A stretch of DNA of 64,000 nt from Thermoplasmatota archaeon (lineage in GTDB: Archaea; Thermoplasmatota; E2; JACPAO01; JAHFTW01), in NCBI GenBank assembly GCA_041601615.1, contig JBFIHX010000004.1, positions 1-64,000 on the forward strand. Direction: 5' to 3'. Every line of letters starts with the position of its first letter. The first letter of the stretch is position 1. A model generated the notes under the pieces. The model worked only from the letters and a program-made list of their open reading frames with translations, searched no databases and had not been told where the DNA came from. A program made the position numbers and the translations under genes. Shown here piece after piece: positions 51,924 to 64,000 of this stretch.

Positions 51924-52119
51924 GAGGGCGCCACTCGCCTTGGACGCATGAACCCCGCGCCCGCGCCGAAATCGACCCAAATAATTTCACCAAGATTGAG
52001 AATTTTTTTGTGCTCTTATAGTTCCATGGCGGGGAACATCATGGCTAGAAGGCTTGAGTACACCAAAGCGATTCCACATGGACGTGCCAAATCGATGGCA
52101 CATGGAACCAGTGGATACC

Positions 52120-53868
52120 ATGTTCAGACAACAACTCAACGCAGCCATCGCATTTGGCTTGCTGGCCGCAACTCTCGTCTCCGGACTCAGCCCCGAACCG
52201 CCCGCCGTCGCACGCGCCACTATTGACCTCGGAGGCGTGGATCTGTCCCCGGTCTTTGATGAACCATGGTGGCCAGAATGGCTCGCGTACAACGACCTTG
52301 ACGGAGACCGCATCGAGGACGCCGCCCAAAGAGAAACCCACCGCATTCTCTCCAGCGGCACCGGCCAATCCCTAGCACTGCTCATCAACTACGACCGCGC
52401 CGCAACACCCGCCGACGCAGACGCCCTTCGATTGCTTGGCGGCGTCGTGCTGCACGAATTCACCTGGATTCCCACCATTCTCGCAGCCATTCCCGCAGCT
52501 GCCGTACCCGCCATCTCGCAATTGCCCGGCGTCGTCGCCGTGGAATGGGACCGCCCCCTCGTGCCCTTGCTCGACAAATCCGGCCCCGCCACAGGCGCCG
52601 TGGAAGATCCCGGCTCCGGCCCCTACAACGGCTACACCGCAGAAGCCCTCGGATACACCGGCTCCGGCATGGTCGTCGCAGTCATCGACACCGGCGTCTC
52701 CCAAGGCCACCCGGCGTTTGCGGGCAAATGGGTCACGGGTGCGCTCACCAGCCTCCTGGGATCCTACTACGGTGGCTTCGTCAGCAGCCCCGTCAGCGCC
52801 ATCCAATGCGCCGACCCCCTCGACGACGGCGGACACGGCACACACGTTGCAGGCACCGCCGTAGGCAACCACGCAGGCAACAACCACAAGGGCACCGCCA
52901 AGGACGCCAAACTCGTAGAGATCAAAATCGACGTGGGCGGCGCCTCGGGCGTCTACGGCACCATCCTGTACCCCTTCAGCATCGGCGGCGGAGACGAAGT
53001 CGCCTTCGAATGGGTGCTCTCCTACAACAGCGCCATCGACGCAGGCTCCCCCCTATGCGGGGTATCCAGCAGCGACCGCATCGACGTGGCCACCATGAGC
53101 TTCGGCTCCACCGGCGCCGGCGGCATCAACGCAGGCACCATGGAAGCCGTCCAACAACAAATGGTCGCAAACGGCGTCGTCACCACCATCGCCGCCGGCA
53201 ACGTCGGAGGCAGCGAATTCACCATCTCCAGCCCCGGCAACGCCGCCGCCACCATCAGTGTCGCCAACAGCAACGACAAGAACACCGTAACGCGCACCGA
53301 CGACAGCCTCGCCGGCTCCAGCAGCCGCGGACCCAACCAAGGCAGCGCCAGCAACCTTGCAGGCCTCACCGATCGCTACCGCAAACCCGACCTCGCAGCA
53401 CCCGGCACCAACATCATGGCACCCAACACCTACGAAGGCATCTACCGCCAATACGGCCTCCCGATCGGCGCCTCCGAATACGTCAGCAAAACCGGCACCA
53501 GCATGGCGACCCCCCACGTCGCCGGCATCGCCGCACTCCTCATCGAAGCAGGAGAAAGCGTCAAAGGAGCCACAGGCGGCGTCAACCTCATGCGCCCCAC
53601 CGGCGACGGCTACGACGCCAGCGGCAACTATGCAATCGGCGAACACCCCGTCCGCGACGCACTGATCCACAGCACCGACTACAAAACTAGCGGCGTCACC
53701 TCCGCCATGCTCACCAAATGGCAAGGCAACAACAACAATGGCGTCAACTGGAACAACGGCTACGGCTACGGCCACGTCGACGCCTTCGCCGCCTTGTGCT
53801 GGGCCTGGAACAACGTGTTGATTCCCGGCGGCGCCACCGCGACCGCCGCCGTCACCACCAAGTGCTAA
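52120..53868 (+). CDS. secreted S8 subtilase with propeptide
   Basis: VIDTG, GHGTHVAG, AAGN, GTSMATPHVAG. Confidence 0.93.
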   Translation: MFRQQLNAAIAFGLLAATLVSGLSPEPPAVARATIDLGGVDLSPVFDEPWWPEWLAYNDLDGDRIEDAAQRETHRILSSGTGQSLALLINYDRAATPADADALRLLGGVVLHEFTWIPTILAAIPAAAVPAISQLPGVVAVEWDRPLVPLLDKSGPATGAVEDPGSGPYNGYTAEALGYTGSGMVVAVIDTGVSQGHPAFAGKWVTGALTSLLGSYYGGFVSSPVSAIQCADPLDDGGHGTHVAGTAVGNHAGNNHKGTAKDAKLVEIKIDVGGASGVYGTILYPFSIGGGDEVAFEWVLSYNSAIDAGSPLCGVSSSDRIDVATMSFGSTGAGGINAGTMEAVQQQMVANGVVTTIAAGNVGGSEFTISSPGNAAATISVANSNDKNTVTRTDDSLAGSSSRGPNQGSASNLAGLTDRYRKPDLAAPGTNIMAPNTYEGIYRQYGLPIGASEYVSKTGTSMATPHVAGIAALLIEAGESVKGATGGVNLMRPTGDGYDASGNYAIGEHPVRDALIHSTDYKTSGVTSAMLTKWQGNNNNGVNWNNGYGYGHVDAFAALCWAWNNVLIPGGATATAAVTTKC

Positions 53869-54029
53869 ACGAACCGCAATCAACCCCGCCTGCCCCGACG
53901 AATCCCAAGGACCAGGGCCCCCTTGCACCGTCGGGGCAGGCCACACCCCCTGCTGCCAAAGCCAGGCTACAAAAAAATCAGCGCTGGGTCGCCGCAAGGC
54001 TGAAGTGGCGAAGGCGCCGCTTCGAACCG

Positions 54030-55418
54030 ATGCGACTGCTTGCCGTGGTGTTCCTAGTGCTCCTGCCCCTTGCCGGCTGCCTGGATGACCCATCTGATTC
54101 CGACGGACTCAACACCCCAGGACCCGCCGCCGCACTGCCCCCCGGCGTGCACATCTTTGGCGGCAACACCACAGACATCGCAGACCGCCTGCTTGGACAC
54201 GCCGAATACGTCCTCACCGGCTACCAAGGAGCCGAACCCAACATCGGCGCCACCAGCACCGGCAGCCTGTTCGTTTCCGCCGGCAGCATCGTGCTTCGCA
54301 GCCAAGACGAAGGCCGCACCTGGCACCCCGTGCAAGAACACCTGCTTCTCAACAGCGACCCCATGCTCTGGGTCGACCCCTGGACCGACTGCATCTACAA
54401 CGTCCCGATGTTCCCCATCCTGCTTGGTGCAACCCTCTACCGCTCCTGCGACGACGGCGACACTTGGACTCCGATTCACTCCCAAAACATGGGCCACGGC
54501 GTCTACGACCACCAAAAACTCGCAAGCGCCCTACCCGGCCCGGACGCACCCCCCATAGCGGGTGCTGCCTACCCCACCGTCCTCATCATCTGCTACAACG
54601 CACTCGTAGCCACCCATTGCGCCATGAGCTTTGATGGAGGCATCACCTGGCCCATCGACCAACCCATCTGGGACACCGTGCGAGGCCCCGACTGCGCCGG
54701 CCAACAAAGCCACCCCACCGGAGCCCCCGACGGCACCATCGTCGTCGCCAAAGCATGGGGCTGCGCAGAGCCGCTCATCTACATCAGCACCGACTCAGGA
54801 ATCACATGGCAAGTGCGCCCCGGACCCACAGGCATCGGCGCAGACACCCTCGACCCTGAAATTGCATTCACAAGCGACGGCGCCATGTACATGCTCTGGC
54901 AAAGTGCACCCGACGAAAGCCGCGCCCACCTCGCCCGCAGTGACGACATGGGCCAGACCTGGCAAGGACCCTGGGACGTCACCCCGCCCGGCATGGACAG
55001 CACCATCTTTGCAGCACTCGCCGCCGGCACCCCAGGCCGCGTCGCCCTCGCCTTCCACGCCACCAACGCCTCCGGCGCCCCCGGCGAAGTCGAAGACACG
55101 GCCCAATGGCACACCTACATCGTCACCTCCGAGAACGCCGACACCGACAACCCCACGTTCGTCAGCCACCAAGCCCAAACCGACCCAGTCCAAGTAGGAA
55201 GCATCTGCAAAGGCAACCGAGGATGCACGGGAGGAAACCGCAACCTCCTCGACTTCATCGATGGCGCCATCACCCCCGACGGCACCTTCTACGTCGCCTA
55301 CGCCGAAGGATGCACCGAAACCTGCGCCGACAACCCCAACGCCAAGCCCCAAGACAGCCGCGACCGCGCCACAAGTGTTGCCATGCTGCGCGACTGGTCC
55401 CTGTACGCCGACGCCTAA
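54030..55418 (+). CDS. BNR/Asp-box (sialidase-like) beta-propeller lipoprotein
   Basis: LAGC lipobox; repeated S.D.G.TW Asp boxes. Confidence 0.85.
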   Translation: MRLLAVVFLVLLPLAGCLDDPSDSDGLNTPGPAAALPPGVHIFGGNTTDIADRLLGHAEYVLTGYQGAEPNIGATSTGSLFVSAGSIVLRSQDEGRTWHPVQEHLLLNSDPMLWVDPWTDCIYNVPMFPILLGATLYRSCDDGDTWTPIHSQNMGHGVYDHQKLASALPGPDAPPIAGAAYPTVLIICYNALVATHCAMSFDGGITWPIDQPIWDTVRGPDCAGQQSHPTGAPDGTIVVAKAWGCAEPLIYISTDSGITWQVRPGPTGIGADTLDPEIAFTSDGAMYMLWQSAPDESRAHLARSDDMGQTWQGPWDVTPPGMDSTIFAALAAGTPGRVALAFHATNASGAPGEVEDTAQWHTYIVTSENADTDNPTFVSHQAQTDPVQVGSICKGNRGCTGGNRNLLDFIDGAITPDGTFYVAYAEGCTETCADNPNAKPQDSRDRATSVAMLRDWSLYADA

Positions 55419-55488
55419 CTCGCCACCGCGTCGCGCGATTGCCTCAAAAAGCCGCAAGGTCCAAGGCAACGAGCACCCAACCTACACC

Positions 55489-55662
55489 ATGGACCCAACC
55501 GGAGGCATTCCAAGCGCTTGCCCCTACTGTCAAAGTCCACGCATAGGCCCAATCCAGGACCCCGACATCACCGCGTTGCCCGGCACTCCAACAGCGCCCA
55601 CGCCCTACCCCGGCGTGCTAACCTGCCGCGACTGCGGCGCGATCATTCAGTGGGAACCTTGA
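55489..55662 (+). CDS. small zinc-finger protein (57 aa)
   Basis: CPYC...CRDCG. Confidence 0.55.
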   Translation: MDPTGGIPSACPYCQSPRIGPIQDPDITALPGTPTAPTPYPGVLTCRDCGAIIQWEP

Positions 55663-55674
55663 AGATCGGCCGGT

Positions 55675-56529
55675 TTAGCCCGTCGGATCCCGCCACGGCC
55701 CATCCGCAATGAAAGACCAGTCCTCAGTTGGAACTTGATCATAGAACTGCGTCAGAAAAATCTCGAATCGCTGCTCGACTACAACCGTCGGCTGCGACTT
55801 ACCAGGAAACACACGCACCAAGTACGAGCGATAATCCTCGCCATGCGCCGGCGGCATCTCTTCGCCATCCACCTTCAAAATCTGCGGACTCTGGCCATCC
55901 ACTTGCACATGGTCCTCCGGTACCACCGTCGTTTCATTCATGATGCCAATGCTCAACGTGTCCCCGATGCCACTGGACGGCTCCCAAATCATCTCCGCCT
56001 GGATGTACGTCACCGGCCGCTGCACAAACGTGTCAAACGTATTGATGGACGCAGCAAAGGCACAGGGATTGACGCCTCGCCCATAGACTCCAGTGACACC
56101 TAGGCCCACGCCGCATTGCAGGAAGCCATTGTAATTGAGCAACTCTGAAAACGGCAAACTGGACACATCCACCACCAACTGAATCTTCACCACAGGAGGC
56201 CGATCCACTCCCGCCACCACATCCGTACTAACCTGCAACGTCGAGTAACCCGCCTTCGTGGCCGTCAAGAAATACGTCCCCGGTTCAAGGTCGGCAAAGA
56301 CAAACAAGCCGTCCTTGTCCGAAAGCGTCTCCCGGCCGTCCTGCATCGCCACCGTCGCCGCCGAAAGGGGCGTGAACGTTGCATCCACCACAACGCCACG
56401 AATCACTCCCGTGGAATCAGTCGCCTTTGTCTCCAAATTTTCGAACTCTTCCGGCTCATTATTGGGTGCCGCACTCTCGGCACAACCAGACAGCAACAAC
56501 ACTCCAAGTAGGAGCCACAGCACACGCAT
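55675..56529 (-). CDS. carboxypeptidase-regulatory-like domain lipoprotein
   Basis: LSGC lipobox, GVIRGVVVD, LEPGTY; EQRFEIF..FY tail. Confidence 0.78.
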   Translation of the reverse strand: MRVLWLLLGVLLLSGCAESAAPNNEPEEFENLETKATDSTGVIRGVVVDATFTPLSAATVAMQDGRETLSDKDGLFVFADLEPGTYFLTATKAGYSTLQVSTDVVAGVDRPPVVKIQLVVDVSSLPFSELLNYNGFLQCGVGLGVTGVYGRGVNPCAFAASINTFDTFVQRPVTYIQAEMIWEPSSGIGDTLSIGIMNETTVVPEDHVQVDGQSPQILKVDGEEMPPAHGEDYRSYLVRVFPGKSQPTVVVEQRFEIFLTQFYDQVPTEDWSFIADGPWRDPTG

Positions 56530-56631
56530 GGGTCGGCACTGGCAGCATGGACCCAAAACCATTGCCGTCGCATCGCCACGCGATGAGCCCGCGCAGCAAA
56601 CATCATCAACCAACCCCGGCTCGCGCGACCC

Positions 56632-57054
56632 ATGGCGAGGGAAATCCCCGTCGAGGAACACCTCGAAAAGCAGTTGGCGGCCGGCCGCAAGGTCATCGCG
56701 AACGATGCACAGAGCCGCGCCTTGTTTGCGCAGCTCAAATCCGAGTGCCCCGACGTGGACGAAGACGCAATCGTGCGCGCCTTTGCGACACCCGGCTTCG
56801 GCACCAAAAACGTCGAGGCGGCCGTGGTCGCCACCGTGCGCCAAAAGCAATTCAACGCGCAAAACCCGCGCCCCGCGTACAAGGACATCTACGCCCACCT
56901 TCTACCCGAAGAAATGGCCGACGACATCCGCGACGACCCCGAATACCGCGGCCAATTTGCCGACCTTCTTGGAGAAATCGAAGAAGAATTCGACCCCGAC
57001 GGCGGCATCAACGACACCGAGATGCGCCGCGAGATCAAGGAAGCCCTAGCGTAA
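56632..57054 (+). CDS. hypothetical acidic protein translationally coupled to nucS
   Basis: TAATG stop/start overlap at 57052-57056. Confidence 0.65.
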   Translation: MAREIPVEEHLEKQLAAGRKVIANDAQSRALFAQLKSECPDVDEDAIVRAFATPGFGTKNVEAAVVATVRQKQFNAQNPRPAYKDIYAHLLPEEMADDIRDDPEYRGQFADLLGEIEEEFDPDGGINDTEMRREIKEALA

Positions 57055-57839
57055 TGCAGCTCGTCCGTGACCCGGACGCAGCGACCGCACTCACCTTCCT
57101 GCGCGCAGAACTCACATCCCTGCGAGAAGAAAAGGGCCGCATGATCCAGGTGGTCGCCGACTGCGCCATCCAATACCAAGGCCGCGCTCGCAGCATGCTC
57201 CACCGAGGCGAACGCCTCCTGCTGCTGAAGCCCGACGGCACATTCCTCGTCCACACGGCCACGAAGGCAAAGCCGGTCAACTGGCAACCCCCCGGCGCCA
57301 CGTTCCACGCCGAGATCGAAGAAAACCAACTCGTCTTGACCGCATACCGGCCCAAGCCCGAGGAAATCGTCAAGGTCACGTTCCACGACATCCGCATCTG
57401 CCTTGCCGTGCCGCTGCGCGACGCCGAAGAATTGGCCCTCGTGGGCAGCGAAGACGACCTGCAAGAGCTCCTGTTCAAGCACCCAGAACTGGTCGAGCCT
57501 GGCTTTGTGCCCCGCCGCCGCGAACGAGACACCAAACAGGGCTACTACGACCTCGACGGCGACGACGCCACCGGCCGCCGCCTCGTCGTAGAGGTCAAGC
57601 GCGGCACCGCCGGCCTCAAGGACGCCCAGCAACTCTGGCGCTACGTCGAACCCTTGCGGGCCCAGAACCCAGACGGAAAAGTTCGAGGCGTACTCATCGC
57701 CCCCCGCGTCGCCGACAAGGCCCGCGCCCTCCTCTCTGACCACGACCTAGAATGGAAGGAATTAGACTGGGACGACGTACTGCCCAAAGTCGAGCGTATG
57801 CGCCGCGTCGGGCAAGTGGGCCTCGGATCGTTTTCGTAA
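57054..57839 (+). CDS. nucS: endonuclease NucS/EndoMS
   Basis: YQGRARS, LLKPDGTFLVH, PVNWQPPG, SEDDLQ, VVEVKR, QLWRY, RGVLIAP. Confidence 0.94.
   Translation: MQLVRDPDAATALTFLRAELTSLREEKGRMIQVVADCAIQYQGRARSMLHRGERLLLLKPDGTFLVHTATKAKPVNWQPPGATFHAEIEENQLVLTAYRPKPEEIVKVTFHDIRICLAVPLRDAEELALVGSEDDLQELLFKHPELVEPGFVPRRRERDTKQGYYDLDGDDATGRRLVVEVKRGTAGLKDAQQLWRYVEPLRAQNPDGKVRGVLIAPRVADKARALLSDHDLEWKELDWDDVLPKVERMRRVGQVGLGSFS
57768..57839 (+). repeat. left 72-bp direct repeat (nucS 3' end, putative attL)
   Basis: 65/72 identical to 63681-63752. Confidence 0.9.
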
Positions 57840-58180
57840 CGGGGTGGCCGAGCGTAGCGAGTGCCGCCCGGAATGATCGACCTTTTCGAAGGTCGTGGCA
57901 GTGTAACATACAATCTAGGTAGATTAGCGTCTAATTACCTGGAGTATTATATACATGGCTGTGACAAACGAGGAAGTTCGCCGGAGTGAGTTTCGAAAGA
58001 AACGCCAGGGCGAAGCCTCGGCTCCTTAAGATGAGCGAAAATTTCGCTCATATTTCCGGGACCGAGCAAGGCTGCGGTGTATCTTCTATTGCACTGAGGC
58101 GGACGAAAAAGCAAGCATTGAAGCCCAGGCTCCCGGAGGCGTCCTTTGGAGTCAGCAAAACCGGTGTCTTCGTGCTTGCA

Positions 58181-58738
58181 ATGGGGCATGTTGGGCTCAT
58201 ATCGTGGTTGCTTCGGCCCGCACTATTGTACAAGAGAACCCTCGGCCGAGCCACATACGCTGGCGACGCCTTGGCCCACAATTTCGGGCAGCAACGACGC
58301 GCCGGAGTCACCTTGCTTGCACAACGCCACCTCGACCACGGGCGCCCGCGCCGCGCCCTTAGACTTGCCCAACGAAGCACCGCATTGAATCCCCTTCACT
58401 CAGACGCTTTGCGCATCCAAGCTGACGCGCTCCTTCAGGGCATTGAGCAAGAATCAGTAGACGACCCGGCCCGGCGTGACGTGCTTGATGAAGTCAGTCA
58501 AGCACTCGAACGCGCTGCCCGAGCCGCCATCACCGACCCCTGTTCTCTGCGCATCATGCTGGTCGTCGTCGTCGAATTCCACGCCGCCATGGGCAATTAT
58601 GGCACGGCCCAAGAAGTCCTCGAATCCGCTGCATCCATCGACCCGCACCTGACTAGAGCGTTTCTGGCCACCAAGCCCTGGGCACAGCGGCTTCACGCTG
58701 CCCCTGCCACATGGCAAGGTGGCGCCGAAATCAGTTAA
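58181..58738 (+). CDS. TPR-like helical repeat protein
   Basis: ALRLAQRSTALNP, GNYGTAQEVLESAASIDP; start uncertain. Confidence 0.55.
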   Translation: MGHVGLISWLLRPALLYKRTLGRATYAGDALAHNFGQQRRAGVTLLAQRHLDHGRPRRALRLAQRSTALNPLHSDALRIQADALLQGIEQESVDDPARRDVLDEVSQALERAARAAITDPCSLRIMLVVVVEFHAAMGNYGTAQEVLESAASIDPHLTRAFLATKPWAQRLHAAPATWQGGAEIS

Positions 58739-58986
58739 TCACGATCGACTCGGAGACTTCGCCGGGCAGCTTCCAGTGCATCCTTGGCTGAAGCTGGCGC
58801 ATCCATGCCTCGAAGTGAAGTAGAATCGAGAACAAGCCGCAGGTCCCGCCGGACAGCCTCCTCCACGGCCGCACGGACGTAGCTGCTCGGGTTCGGAGCC
58901 AACCCCGGACGCAGGTGCAAAAGCTCCTCCACATCGCCTCGAAGTGGAACTGGTAACGACACCTTCCAAGACCGAGCATCCTCCAT
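58735..58986 (-). CDS. ribbon-helix-helix (CopG-like) DNA-binding protein
   Basis: KVSLPVPLRGDVEELL...NPSSYVRAAVEE. Confidence 0.6.
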   Translation of the reverse strand: MEDARSWKVSLPVPLRGDVEELLHLRPGLAPNPSSYVRAAVEEAVRRDLRLVLDSTSLRGMDAPASAKDALEAARRSLRVDRD

Positions 58987-59167
58987 CCAGTATGCCCACC
59001 CCTTGGCCCAACTTAACCAAACCCAAATCCCCAATCGGCCCATAATCGCCTAACTCGATTTTATAGTTACTCCATATATGCTCCTTTGCAGGTGCATTGT
59101 TGCCCTGTGCGGCTTGTCGTGCCCGACTCACCACCCCGCAAGGGGCACCACCCAAAGGCAAGGCACG

Positions 59168-59317
59168 ATGAGCAAGAAGTCCGCCACCGCAAACCATTGT
59201 CGGGTTTGCAAACTGCAACCAGAGGAGGTCCTGGATTGCACGCATCGGCGCACGGCGGCACAACTCGTGGGTTGGCGTCGATGCACCTCCTCCCTTTGGC
59301 ATTGGAGCAAACAATGA
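59168..59317 (+). CDS. tiny Cys/His-rich protein (49 aa)
   Basis: HCRVC...CTH...C; ATGA-coupled to the next ORF. Confidence 0.35.
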   Translation: MSKKSATANHCRVCKLQPEEVLDCTHRRTAAQLVGWRRCTSSLWHWSKQ

Positions 59318-59616
59318 CTGCAAATAATCCCCCGCGCCCGCATTGCACAGGAACAGGCCGAAGACGACCGCACGACCGAAAAATTCCCGATGACCTACTC
59401 GCGCCCATAGATGGTGCGAGATGGGAAAGCTTCGCGACTCCAGAAACAACACCGGGCGAAAGGACCCTCTTAGCGGGACTGGATAACGGCACATGGGGCC
59501 TCTGGCGTCGACCGAATCAAAGCGTCTACGTGAGCGGCCCCGGCGGCGAGCCTATTCCAGTTGATTCGAAAAAGTGGCCCTTGGATCGATTGCAAAGGGC
59601 GTTTGATGACGGGTAA
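59314..59616 (+). CDS. hypothetical protein (100 aa)
   Basis: ATG overlaps the previous stop; GGAG upstream. Confidence 0.45.
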   Translation: MTANNPPRPHCTGTGRRRPHDRKIPDDLLAPIDGARWESFATPETTPGERTLLAGLDNGTWGLWRRPNQSVYVSGPGGEPIPVDSKKWPLDRLQRAFDDG

Positions 59617-60160
59617 TGCCGACGTTTGCTCCAAAAATGACTTGGCCTGTGAATCGTCGCTACCGGCCGATATGAATTGTGTGGAGCCAGTAGCGGCGGT
59701 CAAGTCAAGGTCAGTAGAACCGGGATCGATACGAATTCTGGCGGCATTAGCCCAAGGCGAAGTGTGTTCAGTCGCAGAAATTGCAAAGCGCCTGGATTTG
59801 CACGCAAAGACCATTGCGTACCATTCCTTAATCCTCGAGCAGGCTGGTGCACTTCGACGAACACCGTGGGGGCGCGAGACACTTCTGCACCGACATGTCC
59901 GCTCCCCTTCCGAGGCTATCGTTCTCCGGTTGTTGCAAGACCCGATACGACACCGAATGTTGGATTTTCTCGGCCAGCGGCCAGTGCAGCAGACAGAATT
60001 GGCACATGCGGCTGGTTCGAAGCCTTTCGCTGCCTATCGGTTATTGCGAGAACTTGTGTCGCGGGATCTTGTAGACGTCACGGCAGGGCCGCGCCGAATC
60101 TACAAGGCAAAACGGTCGTTGATTGATATTCTCCATGCGGCTGCCTCAAAAACGCAATAA
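59606..60160 (+). CDS. tandem ArsR-like winged-helix regulator
   Basis: RILAAL..SVAEIAKRLDLHAKTIAYH and second HTH DPIRHRML..QTELA; start uncertain. Confidence 0.75.
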   Translation: MTGNADVCSKNDLACESSLPADMNCVEPVAAVKSRSVEPGSIRILAALAQGEVCSVAEIAKRLDLHAKTIAYHSLILEQAGALRRTPWGRETLLHRHVRSPSEAIVLRLLQDPIRHRMLDFLGQRPVQQTELAHAAGSKPFAAYRLLRELVSRDLVDVTAGPRRIYKAKRSLIDILHAAASKTQ

Positions 60161-60277
60161 TGCAATAGATTGAGGCCAATATATTGGCCGTAAACCGTCA
60201 GGTTTTGCAGATTGGGAGTATGCAAGCTATGTACCTGGCGCCAATCCTTGATTGCCCGACAACGGGCAGTGATTCAA

Positions 60278-61924
60278 GTGAAAGCCATACCGTATGCAGC
60301 CATCCTCGCCCTTGTGCTGGCGAACGTAGGCCCAACAACCGCAAGCATCCCCACGGACTTCCTGGTCCCTGCCGGGGAAACTGTCTTCCTTTCTGGTGTT
60401 GTCAACGCAGACACAATTCGAATTGATGGAACCGTTCATGCCGTAGGCGACCTTACGCTGGTCGCTCAATCTATCGTGATCGGATCATCGGCCCAAATCT
60501 TGGGCAATGATGGCTTGGGCTACGTTGGATATGCTGATGGAGCCAACCTCGCATTCAAGGCGACCCAAGCCCTGGAAATTCTGGGAGTCATCAAGGCTGG
60601 ACACGGCGCCGACATGCCACACTCCCCGGAGTTTGTGGGTGCCGATGGCGGTGAAGGCGGTAGCGTCTATGTCCATGCCCCCTACATTTCAGTCTTCGAC
60701 GGGGCATACCTGGCTCCGGGCCACGGCGGCCAGGGGGCAGCAGTCACGGCCGTTGCGCCCCCCGCCGGTACCGTCGTTTCCGGTGGCAACGGTGGCAACG
60801 CTGGCATTGTGCTCCTCGACGGAACGCTGAGCCTCCCCGAAGGCGGCTCGACCTTTGGCGCAGCCAATGGCGGCGAAGGCGGCCTTGCATCCAGTTCGGA
60901 CTCTGGACTAAGCACCATCGTCCTTGGCGGCAGCGGCGGCGACGGCGGCCTAGTCGCCACCACCGATCTAGCGTTCAGTTCCCACGCGCCCGAAACCGGC
61001 TACACGCTGTTTCTTGACCTATTGAACGTGGATTCGCTAGGTTGGGTCACGGCGACGGGACAATATGTGCCCGACGCACAAGGAAATGATAAAGCCTTGA
61101 CTCCCACCGAAGAACTTCTCAATATTAATTTCAACCCCCCACGAAAACCGAAGGACCCTATTGGTCCGCCTCCAGACCCCATGGCAGTGGCTGAATTCGT
61201 TTGGTCCCTGATTCCAGACCCTTCCGGCTACCTTGACAATCTTCCGGACCCCTTCGAATTGCTGCCTGAAGATCTTCCAAACCCGATGGATTATCTTCCT
61301 GAGGATTTGCCTCTGCCTGAAAACCTCCCTTTGCCTGGCGGGATTGGCCCCCTTTGCGATCAAGGAATTACGACAAGGTGCCTTGTTACACTCATCGGCA
61401 TTGAGGACGAAAGCGGCGGATGCGGCCGAGGTGCAGATGGAAAGGACGCATCAAACACCGGGGCCCCGGGAGGCAATGGCGGCAAGGGAGCCCCGGGACC
61501 GTCGGGAACCACCATGGGAGGAACCGGGGGCCCTGGCGGCGGAGGCAATCCCGGCGGTGGAGCTGAAGCCAAAGGGGGCGACGGTGGAAAAGGAAGGTGC
61601 TTCTTTGCCCGGGGCGGCGATGGCGGCGATGGCACAGCCATAGGCGAAGATGGGGGAGATGGAGGCATCGGCGGAGATGGAGGCTCTTCCAGCCTCATAG
61701 GCGGCCCTGGTGGGCGAGGAGGCAGTTGCGGTGCAGGGGGCCTTGCGACGGGCACGGGTGGAAAAGGCGGATCTGGTGGAACCTTTGGGGCCCCAGGATC
61801 GCCGGGGAAGGGCTCCAGCACCCCCGGAATACCTGGACAAGGAGGAAACGGTGGCGAAGGGGGCCCAGGATTGATTCCGGGACCTAGCGGAGCCGGCGGA
61901 GGTTGTAGCGCAGACTCCGTGTAA
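60278..61924 (+). CDS. secreted glycine-rich (PGRS/collagen-like) protein
   Basis: signal peptide, GG.GG repeats, Pro-rich LP(D/E/N) linker, long G-x-G-G C-terminal region. Confidence 0.78.
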   Translation: MKAIPYAAILALVLANVGPTTASIPTDFLVPAGETVFLSGVVNADTIRIDGTVHAVGDLTLVAQSIVIGSSAQILGNDGLGYVGYADGANLAFKATQALEILGVIKAGHGADMPHSPEFVGADGGEGGSVYVHAPYISVFDGAYLAPGHGGQGAAVTAVAPPAGTVVSGGNGGNAGIVLLDGTLSLPEGGSTFGAANGGEGGLASSSDSGLSTIVLGGSGGDGGLVATTDLAFSSHAPETGYTLFLDLLNVDSLGWVTATGQYVPDAQGNDKALTPTEELLNINFNPPRKPKDPIGPPPDPMAVAEFVWSLIPDPSGYLDNLPDPFELLPEDLPNPMDYLPEDLPLPENLPLPGGIGPLCDQGITTRCLVTLIGIEDESGGCGRGADGKDASNTGAPGGNGGKGAPGPSGTTMGGTGGPGGGGNPGGGAEAKGGDGGKGRCFFARGGDGGDGTAIGEDGGDGGIGGDGGSSSLIGGPGGRGGSCGAGGLATGTGGKGGSGGTFGAPGSPGKGSSTPGIPGQGGNGGEGGPGLIPGPSGAGGGCSADSV

Positions 61925-61983
61925 TCCCGTGCGCATTATCCTTATCCCTCTTTGCCCATCCCGACTCTACCAAAGGTGACTAC

Positions 61984-63120
61984 ATGTCTTGGCCCCCATA
62001 CCTCATTCTTGCCCTCATGCTCTCGATTTCAGGTTGCAGTTCTAAATCTCAAGTTGAAGATAATCAATCCCCATTGCCATTCACAAATGATCGCGAGCTT
62101 CCAGATTCAATCCATTGGTTCGATACATCGTCCAATGGCGCAGCAGGCAACCGGATGACCTTGGCAACGAGCGAAGGTATCCTCGCAATGGACCAACCTC
62201 TAGAGCCGTGGACAATCCACACAATCTACGGAGCGGAATTTGAAAATCGGACCACTTTTTTGCCGGATGCTGAACCTTGGAATCTTGTAGCTGCGATGGG
62301 TCCACGAGGCCCAGTCATTGCCTACCGGAGCCCCCAATATGCGATGTATGTAGCCGAATGGGATGGCTCAGATTGGGCGCGAGGAACATTGATCCCCCCT
62401 CCCGGCGAAATCTACGGGTTTCCGACTTTGGCAGGTTCCGAGGAAGAACTCATGCTGAGTTTTCCAGTGCTTTCCTCATTCCTGAACGAGCCCCGATACA
62501 GTGTACTCCGCCTTACAAATGGAATATTAGCTGATTTATCTATCAGCGAACGATTGGATTTCCCAACTATTCCAATATTAAGCCAAGGAGCTATGTATTT
62601 AGAACATGAAACATTGACTTTCGCGTTTGCCCGTAATTTATCAACAGTGGAGGTGCGGACTTCACTCTGGCAAGACCTCGCCAAAACCCCTGCGATAGAA
62701 CTTCAAGGCCCCAATCCTGACGGACTACCACAATCATACTATACAGAAATAGCGAAAAAAGAAGATGGTGGATTTGTCATTGCAATCACTGCATGGGAAG
62801 CTTTTTTCTTGACGGAAACAGGCCTTCGCGACGCCATCATTTATGATCTTGGAGAAGAAACGGCAACATCAATCCAGACCAGAGACATAGTTGCCGTGCG
62901 GACCACCCCCCTAGGCGTGGCGGTTGTCCGAACCGATGCACAGGCCACCCACCACATCCAGATCTTGGGTTCGGGCAAGGATGTGGATATTGCGCAGTCC
63001 GACTGTACCCGATTCTCAATTTTGCCGGATGCGAAAACAATCACGCTAACCACTCGTGAAGGCCAATGGGAATCCCAGTTTGGACTTCTCCCAGACAATA
63101 TCCAAACCTGTAGTCCTTGA
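61984..63120 (+). CDS. lipoprotein, probable beta-rich fold
   Basis: ISGC lipobox; AT-richer codon usage. Confidence 0.65.
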   Translation: MSWPPYLILALMLSISGCSSKSQVEDNQSPLPFTNDRELPDSIHWFDTSSNGAAGNRMTLATSEGILAMDQPLEPWTIHTIYGAEFENRTTFLPDAEPWNLVAAMGPRGPVIAYRSPQYAMYVAEWDGSDWARGTLIPPPGEIYGFPTLAGSEEELMLSFPVLSSFLNEPRYSVLRLTNGILADLSISERLDFPTIPILSQGAMYLEHETLTFAFARNLSTVEVRTSLWQDLAKTPAIELQGPNPDGLPQSYYTEIAKKEDGGFVIAITAWEAFFLTETGLRDAIIYDLGEETATSIQTRDIVAVRTTPLGVAVVRTDAQATHHIQILGSGKDVDIAQSDCTRFSILPDAKTITLTTREGQWESQFGLLPDNIQTCSP

Positions 63121-63680
63121 GCGAAAACGGCCATCCGACCCCACCAACGCTCTCACAGCCAAGCCGGGCCTCGATTCCCTTATGGGGCCCGTGACGACTT
63201 ACTGCCAGAGATCCCGGAGGGCGACGGCGTGAATCCTCGCCACGCGGCCATCCCGGCCGAATACAGCTCCTTGCACTGCGCCGCCGGCTGCCCACGCTGC
63301 AAAACTCCAGAAGGAACCATGCAATGCAGCCAAGACGCCGCTTGGCGAGCATTGGCAATGCTTCAAGCCCAGGCACGGCAAGCCACTGAATCCACGCGCC
63401 CTGAATCCCCTATGGGAGCCAAGAAGCCGGAGCTATGGTCTTGCAAAGGACATCCTCAAACTCCCTTGAATTCACCTGAGCCACACAGGCCGCAGGCAGA
63501 GCGCATATCTTGACGGTGCAGGAACTAGTACCGGAACGGCCATGAGTCTCAACGCATTGCCACGACCTAGGCCTCCCCGTCAAACGACCACTCCATTCAA
63601 CACCTCCCTTTGAAGTGTAGCATCCCGGAAAGTCGTACTTGGACGCTATCTGGCATCGACCTTTTTCAAGGTCGTTGGAA

Positions 63681-63752
63681 TGGGACGACGTGCTACCCAA
63701 AGTCGAGCGCATGCGTCGGGTCGGGCAAGTGGGCCTCGGTTCGTTTTCGTAG
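63681..63752 (+). repeat. right 72-bp direct repeat (displaced nucS 3' end, putative attR)
   Basis: encodes the same WDDVLPKVERMRRVGQVGLGSFS* as 57768-57839. Confidence 0.9.
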
Positions 63753-64000
63753 CTACGACGGAATCGGATGCGCTCCGTCGTTCAGGTATGTCCAGCCTTC
63801 ATCCGGGACAAACCGGTAGAAGTTGGTGTTGATGATCTCGAATTCCTGTTCTAGGACCACCGAAACACTTGTGGATCCAGGGAAGACGCGCAACAGGAAG
63901 GACTCGTATCCGATGCCGTTGTATTCCTCGATGGTCGTGCCGTTGACCAACAGTGTTTGCGGGCTGCCACCGTCCACTGTCGCGTAGTTGCTCGCGACGG
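63753..64000 (-). CDS. C-terminal part of a further carboxypeptidase-regulatory-like family paralog (runs off the window)
   Basis: DGGSPQTL..LRVFPG..EQEFEI..FY..P.EGW aligns with the end of 55675-56529. Confidence 0.75.
   Translation of the reverse strand, partial: VASNYATVDGGSPQTLLVNGTTIEEYNGIGYESFLLRVFPGSTSVSVVLEQEFEIINTNFYRFVPDEGWTYLNDGAHPIPS

Follow-up and report, generated by a model that had tools for sequence, protein, structure and literature searches.

Tyrosine-integrase elements of archaea and bacteria that target tRNA genes carry the 3' part of the target gene in their attachment site, attP. Integrase-less islands flanked by attachment-site (att) repeats are also known, as cis-mobilisable elements derived from or mobilised by the integrative and conjugative elements (ICEs) of streptococci. 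Bacterial mismatch-repair genes hold mobile elements too, for example the streptococcal island in the mutS-mutL region, where repair genes are interrupted or uncoupled and a switchable mutator state results. Here we describe a 5.8-kb foreign segment inserted into the 3' end of nucS, the gene for the mismatch endonuclease EndoMS/NucS, in a metagenome-assembled genome (MAG) of a Thermoplasmatota archaeon (GCA_041601615.1; 2.79 Mb in 30 contigs). The stretch that we analysed, referred to below as the window, comprises the first 64 kb of the 235,753-bp contig C4 (JBFIHX010000004.1), and positions given without a contig name refer to it. The closest described archaeal systems are the integrated elements of Thaumarchaeota: in a survey of them, 39 target tRNA genes, 15 lie in intergenic sites, and 14 of the 68 occupy the 3'-distal part of a protein gene with reconstitution of the reading frame, and all three target types can occur within one genome (PMC6563490). 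Casposons, according to the same survey, are archaeal elements often inserted at the 3' end of a protein gene (ef-2) (PMC6563490).

The nucS gene of the window is intact. Pfam profiles match the N-terminal PH-like and the C-terminal RecB-like nuclease domains of its product, the C-terminal motif is kept, and the protein shares 89% and 88% of its residues with NucS from the two congeneric species (89% for the nearest relative, G002). We found that the last 24 codons of nucS (57768-57839) recur at 63681-63752. Both copies encode WDDVLPKVERMRRVGQVGLGSFS*, and they differ at seven positions, all of them third positions and all silent, the TAA/TAG stop codons included. The homology extends two codons further, to 57762 and 63675, where TTA GAC in the left copy stands against TTG GAA in the right one (L-D versus L-E); the E of the right copy is the residue found in G002. 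The full direct repeat is thus 78 nt long and 88% identical, with nine differences, every one at a third codon position, of which eight are silent and one exchanges D for E. The longest exact run common to both copies is the 20-nt sequence GTCGGGCAAGTGGGCCTCGG. The nucS tail is present at these two places only in the whole 2.79-Mb assembly, and a chance origin of the duplicate is excluded. The stop codon of the right copy (63750-63752) abuts, at 63753, the stop codon of a convergent gene on the minus strand.

The duplicated segment is a conserved part of the protein. In 22 tails from the family, G24, Q25, L28 and F31 of the last 32 residues are invariant, so that a GQxxLxxF motif is conserved, and this motif is the predicted PCNA-binding end of NucS; we take its Qxx[L]xxF core to be a PCNA-interacting (PIP) box. 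As summarised in a review, archaeal NucS binds PCNA via a PIP motif at its extreme C-terminus, and loss of C-terminal residues raises the mutation rate in Corynebacterium (PMC8228993). Because the motif is conserved in the family and the archaeal NucS C-terminus is a PCNA-interacting motif, the tail is under functional constraint. The right copy of the tail is preceded in frame by a TTG codon (63639-63752, plus strand), and a 36-residue peptide ending in the PCNA-binding motif is conceivable; this frame crosses a hairpin element, and its translation would be possible only in principle.

Comparison with related genomes indicates that the 5.8 kb between the two tails is a derived insertion. A contig of G002 aligns to window positions 55676-57838 and then, directly adjacent, to 63678-63974. 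Among 29 nucS loci that we fetched, 14 have a homologue of the convergent downstream gene less than 200 nt from the end of nucS; all 14 belong to the 23 loci from the family, and they include both congeners, G001 and G002, at 34 and 64 nt. Two further loci have the convergent homologue at 258 and 687 nt, and in the remaining 13 none was found within the 0.5-1.5 kb examined. Because empty sites occur in 14 loci of the family, those of both congeners among them, we regard the tight arrangement as ancestral and the 5.8 kb as derived. The GC content at third codon positions (GC3) of the open reading frames (ORFs) in the segment is 0.46-0.63, versus 0.74-0.79 for nucS and its neighbours. Homology to nucS starts abruptly at the right copy: tblastn matches only NucS residues 233-259 there (E 8e-12), with the next best match in the segment at E 0.64, and no remnant of the nucS body was found in it.

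The junctions are also present in assemblies of other sequencing runs. Four runs carry the stretch as Logan contigs; all belong to one study, which limits their independence. One contig of run X1 spans everything, and X1 is possibly the source of this DNA and so not independent. The left junction is bridged by contigs of X2 (L038 1-1558) and X3 (L038 893-1792), and the right junction, comprising the island end, the right tail and the downstream gene, by a contig of X4 (L038 7249-7632). The X3 contig shows no difference from our sequence and the X4 contig shows one. Together, these data demonstrate that the 5.8 kb between the nucS-tail copies is a foreign insertion into the 3' end of nucS. The sequence-only reading, made from the letters of this DNA before the present analysis, had proposed such an island with a replacement tail that preserves frame and protein, and synteny, composition and the repeat all support it. 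Its further observations, namely the seven silent third-position differences, the abutting stops and the atypical composition, were reproduced by alignment, raw sequence, translations and GC3, and the empty sites that it had suggested looking for in related genomes exist. Two explanations that it had named as threats, a chimeric assembly of two strains and a decayed whole-gene duplication, are argued against by the contigs that span the junctions in other runs and by the lack of a nucS body remnant, respectively. The features of the locus are collected in Table 1.

Table 1. Features of the nucS locus and its island, with further copies of the repeat element that follows nucS.
Feature	Position	Strand	Basis
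nucS (EndoMS/NucS mismatch endonuclease), intact, 259 aa	57060..57839	+	Pfam NucS_N 9e-28, NucS_C 4.5e-26
Left copy of the 78-nt direct repeat: final 25 codons and stop of functional nucS; encodes C-terminal GQVGLGSFS (PIP-like)	57762..57839	+	alignment, repeat search
Two-hairpin repeat element (3'-end/terminator-like), about 56 nt, 2 nt past the nucS stop	57842..57897	+	nhmmer family
TPR-repeat protein gene; ORF open from 57986, likely start near 58184	58184..58738	+	Pfam TPR_14 2.9e-8
Conserved ORF of about 100 aa (orf100), first gene of the recurring module	59314..59616	+	paralogues at C1, C23, C8
Regulator with two winged-helix (ArsR/MarR-like) domains	59561..60160	+	Pfam HTH_20 9.7e-9, MarR 2e-8; NCBIfam ArsR/SmtB 9.4e-11
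Gly-rich repeat protein, 570 aa, hydrophobic N-terminal segment, predicted secreted	60212..61924	+	translation, internal GGxGG-type repeats
Predicted lipoprotein, 378 aa, lipobox-like LSISGC near the N-terminus (read by eye)	61984..63120	+	translation
Right-end structured element: hairpin 63617-63648 and a copy of hairpin 2 of the two-hairpin element (63656-63674)	63617..63674	+	repeat search
Right copy of the 78-nt repeat: displaced nucS tail without nucS body upstream	63675..63752	+	alignment; tail profile E 5e-14
Convergent CarboxypepD_reg-like lipoprotein gene, 3' part; frame runs to C4:64676 beyond the window	63753..64000	-	conserved downstream neighbour of nucS in the family; synteny with G002
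Further two-hairpin copies in this assembly (G000), among others	C2:114770-115057, C3:92417-92484, C2:306558-306620, C5:134620-134685, C1:235660-235843		

The pattern of differences between the two tails bears on where they came from. A random change in the nucS tail is silent with a probability of 0.25-0.29, so that seven silent changes out of seven have P of about 1e-4; under a model in which the copies were identical at birth, one being selected and the other drifting, the same outcome has P of about 0.002. Because all seven differences are silent, the two tails diverged as the working ends of two nucS genes, and therefore in two lineages. The copies are each other's nearest, with 9 differences between them versus 18-19 to the tails of G001 and G002, which differ from one another at 22 positions. 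As the copies differ less than the tails of the congeners do, the foreign tail stems from a sister lineage inside the genus. The earlier proposal that the right copy is the original and the left one came with the element was not borne out by this comparison, in which neither copy is nearer to the relatives' tails (18-19 differences each). Both copies would in fact be hybrids if the crossover fell inside the repeat, and the proposed assignment, which is the classical expectation, would hold strictly only for the parts distal to the crossover.

The island segment (57840-63674) contains no recombinase gene that we could find. Searches of the island with Pfam, PHROGs, NCBIfam and PADLOC found no integrase, transposase, Cas1 or replication gene, and PHROGs, NCBIfam and PADLOC returned only generic winged helix-turn-helix (wHTH) matches; genome-wide scans with PF00589 and PF16795 gave no match in the island, and tblastn with the genome's own integrases gave nothing in it below E 0.6. 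The first impression from sequence, that the island has no recognisable integrase, thus held up in family, integrase-profile and tblastn searches alike. A repeat search found no terminal inverted repeat linking the island ends, and an Rfam scan of 57000-64000 gave one sub-threshold miRNA-family match, which we take as noise.

What the island does encode is a TPR-repeat protein, which has no paralogue in the genome, followed by orf100, the double-wHTH regulator, the Gly-rich protein and the lipoprotein, with about 0.6 kb without a convincing gene between the TPR gene and orf100 and about 0.5 kb between the lipoprotein gene and the right-end hairpins. For orf100 we found no Pfam, PHROG, usable Atlas or fold match; an AlphaFold model built from four sequences reached pLDDT 72, and with it Foldseek retrieved nothing from the PDB below E 0.4. 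Pfam places the second wHTH domain of the regulator at residues 125-176. No family match was obtained for the Gly-rich protein in Pfam, PHROGs, NCBIfam or PADLOC. A minus-strand ORF at 58735-59043, ribbon-helix-helix-like by eye, was rejected for want of family support. The structured element at the right end stops exactly where the tail homology starts (63674/63675).

The module of orf100, regulator and Gly-rich protein is not confined to nucS. It recurs at C1:180755-183390, with 41%, 56% and 54% amino acid identity for the three proteins (the N-terminal 167 aa of the Gly-rich protein are the part that is 54% identical to its C1 paralogue), and again at C23:3670-4504, and orf100 occurs alone at C8:90544-90840. 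The orf100 paralogues are 32-40% identical, with 20 invariant columns. In a collection of 5.8 billion proteins, the orf100 profile matched four proteins only, at identities of 41, 40, 36 and 100%, which equal those of the four copies in this genome. Relatives of the regulator were found in 2 of 32 family genomes, namely this one (four places) and G001, and the island DNA, like the regulator, is lacking in almost every genome of the family. Neither the regulator nor the lipoprotein had a match in viral contigs, and a two-sequence alignment of the lipoprotein had none in metagenome contigs. Outside the genus, the pair of Gly-rich protein and lipoprotein has homologues in G047, where the two lie side by side amid DNA of host-like composition and the lipoprotein is 46% identical.

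The C1 copy lies in a second island. This sibling (C1:179347-184091; L048 7348-12092) carries the same module, lacks an integrase and is intergenic; G002 does not have it. A perfect 20-bp direct repeat, AAAAACGGTTTGGTCCGAGC, bounds the island, and imperfect homology extends beyond the repeat on both sides; the empty site of G002 holds the core once, with 19 of 20 bases identical. The carried target homology amounts to 33 nt at this intergenic site versus 78 nt at nucS. The motif CTCGGA...CGTTTTCGT looks like an att motif common to the C1 repeat and the nucS tail; it occurs at four places only in the genome and is not kept in the second C1 copy, and we regard it as a coincidence.

On C8, the orf100 paralogue (36% identity) is separated by 263 nt from a truncated tyrosine integrase, a C-terminal piece of 188 aa, beside a tRNA-Gln gene. 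In this truncated integrase the second His of the HxxRH-like motif reads Ala, and at a distance of 8 kb there is an older integrase pseudogene, interrupted by a stop codon. Thirteen nucleotides of the tRNA-Gln 3' end are repeated at C8 83356-83368, a weak match (E 0.02). Between the integrases, the region (C8:82687-91805; L070) also encodes a 1268-aa protein with Reelin subrepeat-B and MAM-like domains as well as lipoproteins. The make-up of this region suggests that a single tRNA took up tandem integrations or ones that have since decayed. In G001, too, this integrase is found beside tRNA-Gln. A full-length member of the integrase family, 384 aa long, adjoins tRNA-Met on C13, where we found no downstream tRNA repeat and no island homologues. 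The 32-nt hairpin at the right end of the nucS island (63617-63648) recurs at C8:84131-84162 in the same relative orientation. A region on C17 with a wHTH homologue and an integrase remnant was dropped as support on account of its host-like composition. Taken together, the nucS island belongs to a small, lineage-restricted set of predicted surface-protein cassettes, with two demonstrable insertions flanked by att-like repeats (nucS and C1) and one copy linked to a decayed integrase (C8).

We give roughly even odds (a probability of about 0.5) to the reading that 57840-63674 is an integrase-less cryptic integrated element that entered by one site-specific crossover of the tyrosine-integrase type within a carried copy of the nucS tail. 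A circular foreign DNA would have borne 78 bp homologous to the nucS 3' end, either acquired from a sister lineage of the genus or co-evolved with one, and would have recombined once with the chromosomal nucS tail. That exchange would most likely have been of the tyrosine-recombinase type and have fallen within the 20-bp identical core, leaving the element between two tail copies. The left copy would then complete nucS, followed by the terminator-like two-hairpin element, so that NucS would keep its C-terminal PCNA-binding peptide, and the right copy would be a displaced, non-functional fragment abutting the old downstream gene. The recombinase would have been lost after integration or supplied in trans, and the cargo would be a self-regulated surface-protein cassette of small ORF, double-wHTH regulator, Gly-rich secreted protein and lipoprotein. 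In the free form, the tail would have lain between hairpin elements on both sides, insulated within the element, and one of these elements would have given nucS its terminator after integration.

The argument for this reading has two steps. One reciprocal crossover between a circle and the chromosome is indicated because a foreign segment lies between diverged, directly repeated gene ends and the gene is rebuilt. A site-specific event is favoured because of the extreme 3' position with reconstitution, the 20-nt core, the 20-bp repeat at C1, the integrases resident in the genome and the archaeal precedent. We thus infer a circular intermediate, a site-specific enzyme, a crossover point and a foreign half in each repeat. 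Several observations weigh against it. At 78 nt and only 88% identity, and with differences to the left and right of the 20-nt core, the repeat is less like the identical core of a classical att site. Behind the left tail stands a host-type repeat element, so the tail was possibly captured from a related chromosome and is then not a long-standing attP. With three integrases of this genome as queries, tblastn found no integrase or remnant in the island at E up to 5, and the link to integrase-bearing elements, through one small paralogous ORF and one 32-nt motif, is suggestive, not strong. No excised circle or restored attB joint was seen in the contigs of the four runs, which miss rare forms. 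Lastly, no duplicate of the nucS tail was found in the 37 other genomes of the order, in viral contigs or in metagenome contigs.

How the nucS island compares with the systems introduced above can now be stated. As in tRNA-targeting elements, a carried 3' end restores the gene and the original end is displaced; unlike in them, the integrase is missing and the target is a protein gene. Silent recoding of the carried copy is understandable because a protein-gene target constrains that copy at the protein level only. The nucS island shares with cis-mobilisable elements the att-type direct repeats, the lack of a recombination module and the presence of related integrase-bearing elements in the same genome, and differs from the streptococcal ones in its archaeal host, in that the resident integrases lie at tRNA-Met and tRNA-Gln, and in that there is no accretion with a complete element at nucS. 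Like the island in the mutS-mutL region it is a mobile-type island tied to a mismatch-repair gene; unlike there, nucS is rebuilt intact and we see no sign of a switch.

The likeness is closest to the cryptic elements of Thaumarchaeota as the survey describes them: a multigene island of unknown type with flanking direct repeats and an empty site in a close relative, inserted at the extreme 3' end of a gene to which the element supplies a new end and stop codon (PMC6563490). As in Thaumarchaeota, tRNA, intergenic and protein-gene targets occur in one genome, here the tRNA-Gln on C8, the C1 site and nucS (PMC6563490). The thaumarchaeal elements are largely defined via their integrases, of which the nucS island has none, their att is short (13 bp in the example) versus 78 nt with third-position recoding here, and their hosts are Thaumarchaeota where ours is a Thermoplasmatota MAG (PMC6563490). 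The marks of casposons, which are Cas1, PolB, terminal inverted repeats and identical target-site duplications, are all lacking in the nucS island; a casposon or DNA transposon was rejected, as there is no Cas1 or transposase and no end-joining inverted repeat, and the repeat copies differ at nine positions. Since no recombinase is present, the island falls short of a self-mobile element, and the class that suits it best is that of att-flanked islands without an integrase, whether decayed or mobilised in trans. Integrated elements at the 3' ends of protein genes with a carried gene end are already known, and we see no sign of a new mechanism; new here are nucS as a target, in particular its clamp-binding peptide, a host from this phylum, a synonymously recoded repeat of unusual length and the lineage-restricted cassette family.

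The main alternative, possible but rather unlikely, is that the segment came in by capture and homologous recombination. A sister-lineage fragment comprising nucS tail, terminator and island, released by aberrant excision or present as a circularised or linear piece of chromosome, would have been integrated by the host through Campbell-type or homology-facilitated illegitimate recombination anchored in nucS, which needs neither a dedicated integrase nor a co-evolved attP. The lack of a recombinase gene in the island fits this account, and so does homology that is long and diverged and not a short identical core; yet homologous recombination would be poorly served by a 78-nt stretch that is 88% identical and has no exact run beyond 20 nt, and the sibling island at C1 has a classical short perfect 20-bp repeat at an intergenic site. 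A two-hairpin element typical of host gene 3' ends, standing right after the left tail, is what a captured gene end would bring along, but the presumed donor arrangement, with such an element after nucS, is present in none of the 29 other nucS loci fetched. The donor of the foreign tail was very closely related (9 differences, where known species of the genus differ from one another at 18-22 positions), and the start of homology exactly at the hairpin end (63674/63675) could be an illegitimate joint. Extreme 3' insertion with exact reconstitution is nevertheless, according to the thaumarchaeal survey, a hallmark of integrase-borne elements (PMC6563490).

We think it unlikely, and markedly so, that the orf100/double-wHTH islands represent mobile surface-protein cassettes of a new, integrase-less kind, each guided to its target by a short copy of that target which it carries. 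This thought arises because the islands occur in this lineage only, at four places in the genome, two of them with target-homologous repeats and none with a working integrase inside. Integration could then proceed by host recombination or by an unrecognised recombinase among the cassette's own small proteins, and the silently recoded gene end would be a homing device and not a relic.

Three further explanations are very improbable. Had the island been ancestral at nucS and been lost from the relatives by deletion between the tail copies, which flanking direct repeats permit and for which topology alone gives no direction, many independent precise losses would be required, since the tight arrangement of nucS and the convergent gene is found in at least 14 family genomes of several genera, almost every other family genome lacks the island DNA and the regulator, a second tail occurs in this genome only and the island's composition is foreign. 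Duplication in situ, as a long transposon target-site duplication or as the decayed duplicate of a whole nucS gene, would account for two direct copies of one gene end 5.8 kb apart and is scarcely credible: copies identical at birth would diverge randomly if unselected (P of about 0.002 for the silent pattern), 78 nt is far beyond known target-site duplication lengths, and there is no nucS body remnant, transposase or terminal inverted repeat. An assembly chimera, in which two strains, or a chromosome and a free element, were joined via the shared tail, would suit a MAG in which the repeat is the sole sequence common to the putative partners, and is hardly tenable given that an exact match of at most 20 nt could not make de Bruijn paths converge at the assembler's k (apparently 141, going by the 141-nt terminal overlap of contig C26), that contigs built independently from three other runs bridge the junctions (X2 and X3 on the left, X4 on the right), and that the island lies 57 kb inside its contig.

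We also asked whether nucS is a recurrent target. A tail profile built from the 22 family tails and run over 38 genomes of the order matched 33 of them, and a second match occurred only in this genome (63675-63749, E 5e-14). The degenerate pattern RVGQVGLG[ST]FS* gave no match in viral contigs and none in metagenome contigs, and across 185,579 species genomes its only matches were the nucS genes of the two congeners themselves. A literature search combining nucS with integration site or attB had no paper on nucS as an attachment site among those listed, and nucS is absent from the protein-gene targets given for Thaumarchaeota in the survey (PMC6563490). The suggestion that nucS is a general archaeal integration site is thus not supported, with a second tail in 1 of 33 matched genomes, and the insertion is so far a single event. 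An effect on mutation rate, also raised from sequence alone, is speculation, and the nucS gene is intact here; the finding shows neither nucS as a common target nor an altered mutation rate. What it provides is a well-bounded case in which an archaeal genome gains a surface-protein island without harm to a gene of essential function, it adds nucS and a Thermoplasmatota host to the protein-gene targets, and it identifies a small lineage-restricted island family worth following in strain-resolved data.

The two-hairpin element behind nucS belongs to a repeat family of its own. The family members are about 60 nt long, with 21 nhmmer matches in the assembly, and are present in other genera of the family too. 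Both stems show compensatory changes and covariation, and the linker AAAATGATCGA is conserved. Most copies lie 2-55 nt past the stop codon of a long ORF on the same strand, and some form tandem arrays with a period of 100-121 nt. The element has no Rfam match; in all likelihood the family consists either of RNA elements of a 3'-end or terminator-like type or of miniature mobile repeats.

Contig C26 of the assembly (L068, 5182 nt) is unrelated to the nucS island by tblastn. As its two ends are identical over 141 nt, it is probably circular, at 5,041 bp. Its genes specify an Mrr_cat-like nuclease, a CoiA_N-like protein and a 520-aa protein that contains two wHTH domains, and it looks like a small plasmid or virus-like replicon binned with the MAG.

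There is another indel just upstream of the nucS neighbourhood: a 3.7-kb segment at 51932-55675 carries the gene for a BNR/Asp-box repeat protein (53718-55418), and G002 has about 0.3 kb in its place. The nucS gene itself sits inside a cluster of paralogous genes for CarboxypepD_reg-like lipoproteins (55675-56898, 63753-64000 and C4:64802-65686, all on the minus strand) that are 44-46% identical, and at least 15 more paralogous matches elsewhere in the genome make these lipoproteins a large lineage-specific family of surface proteins.

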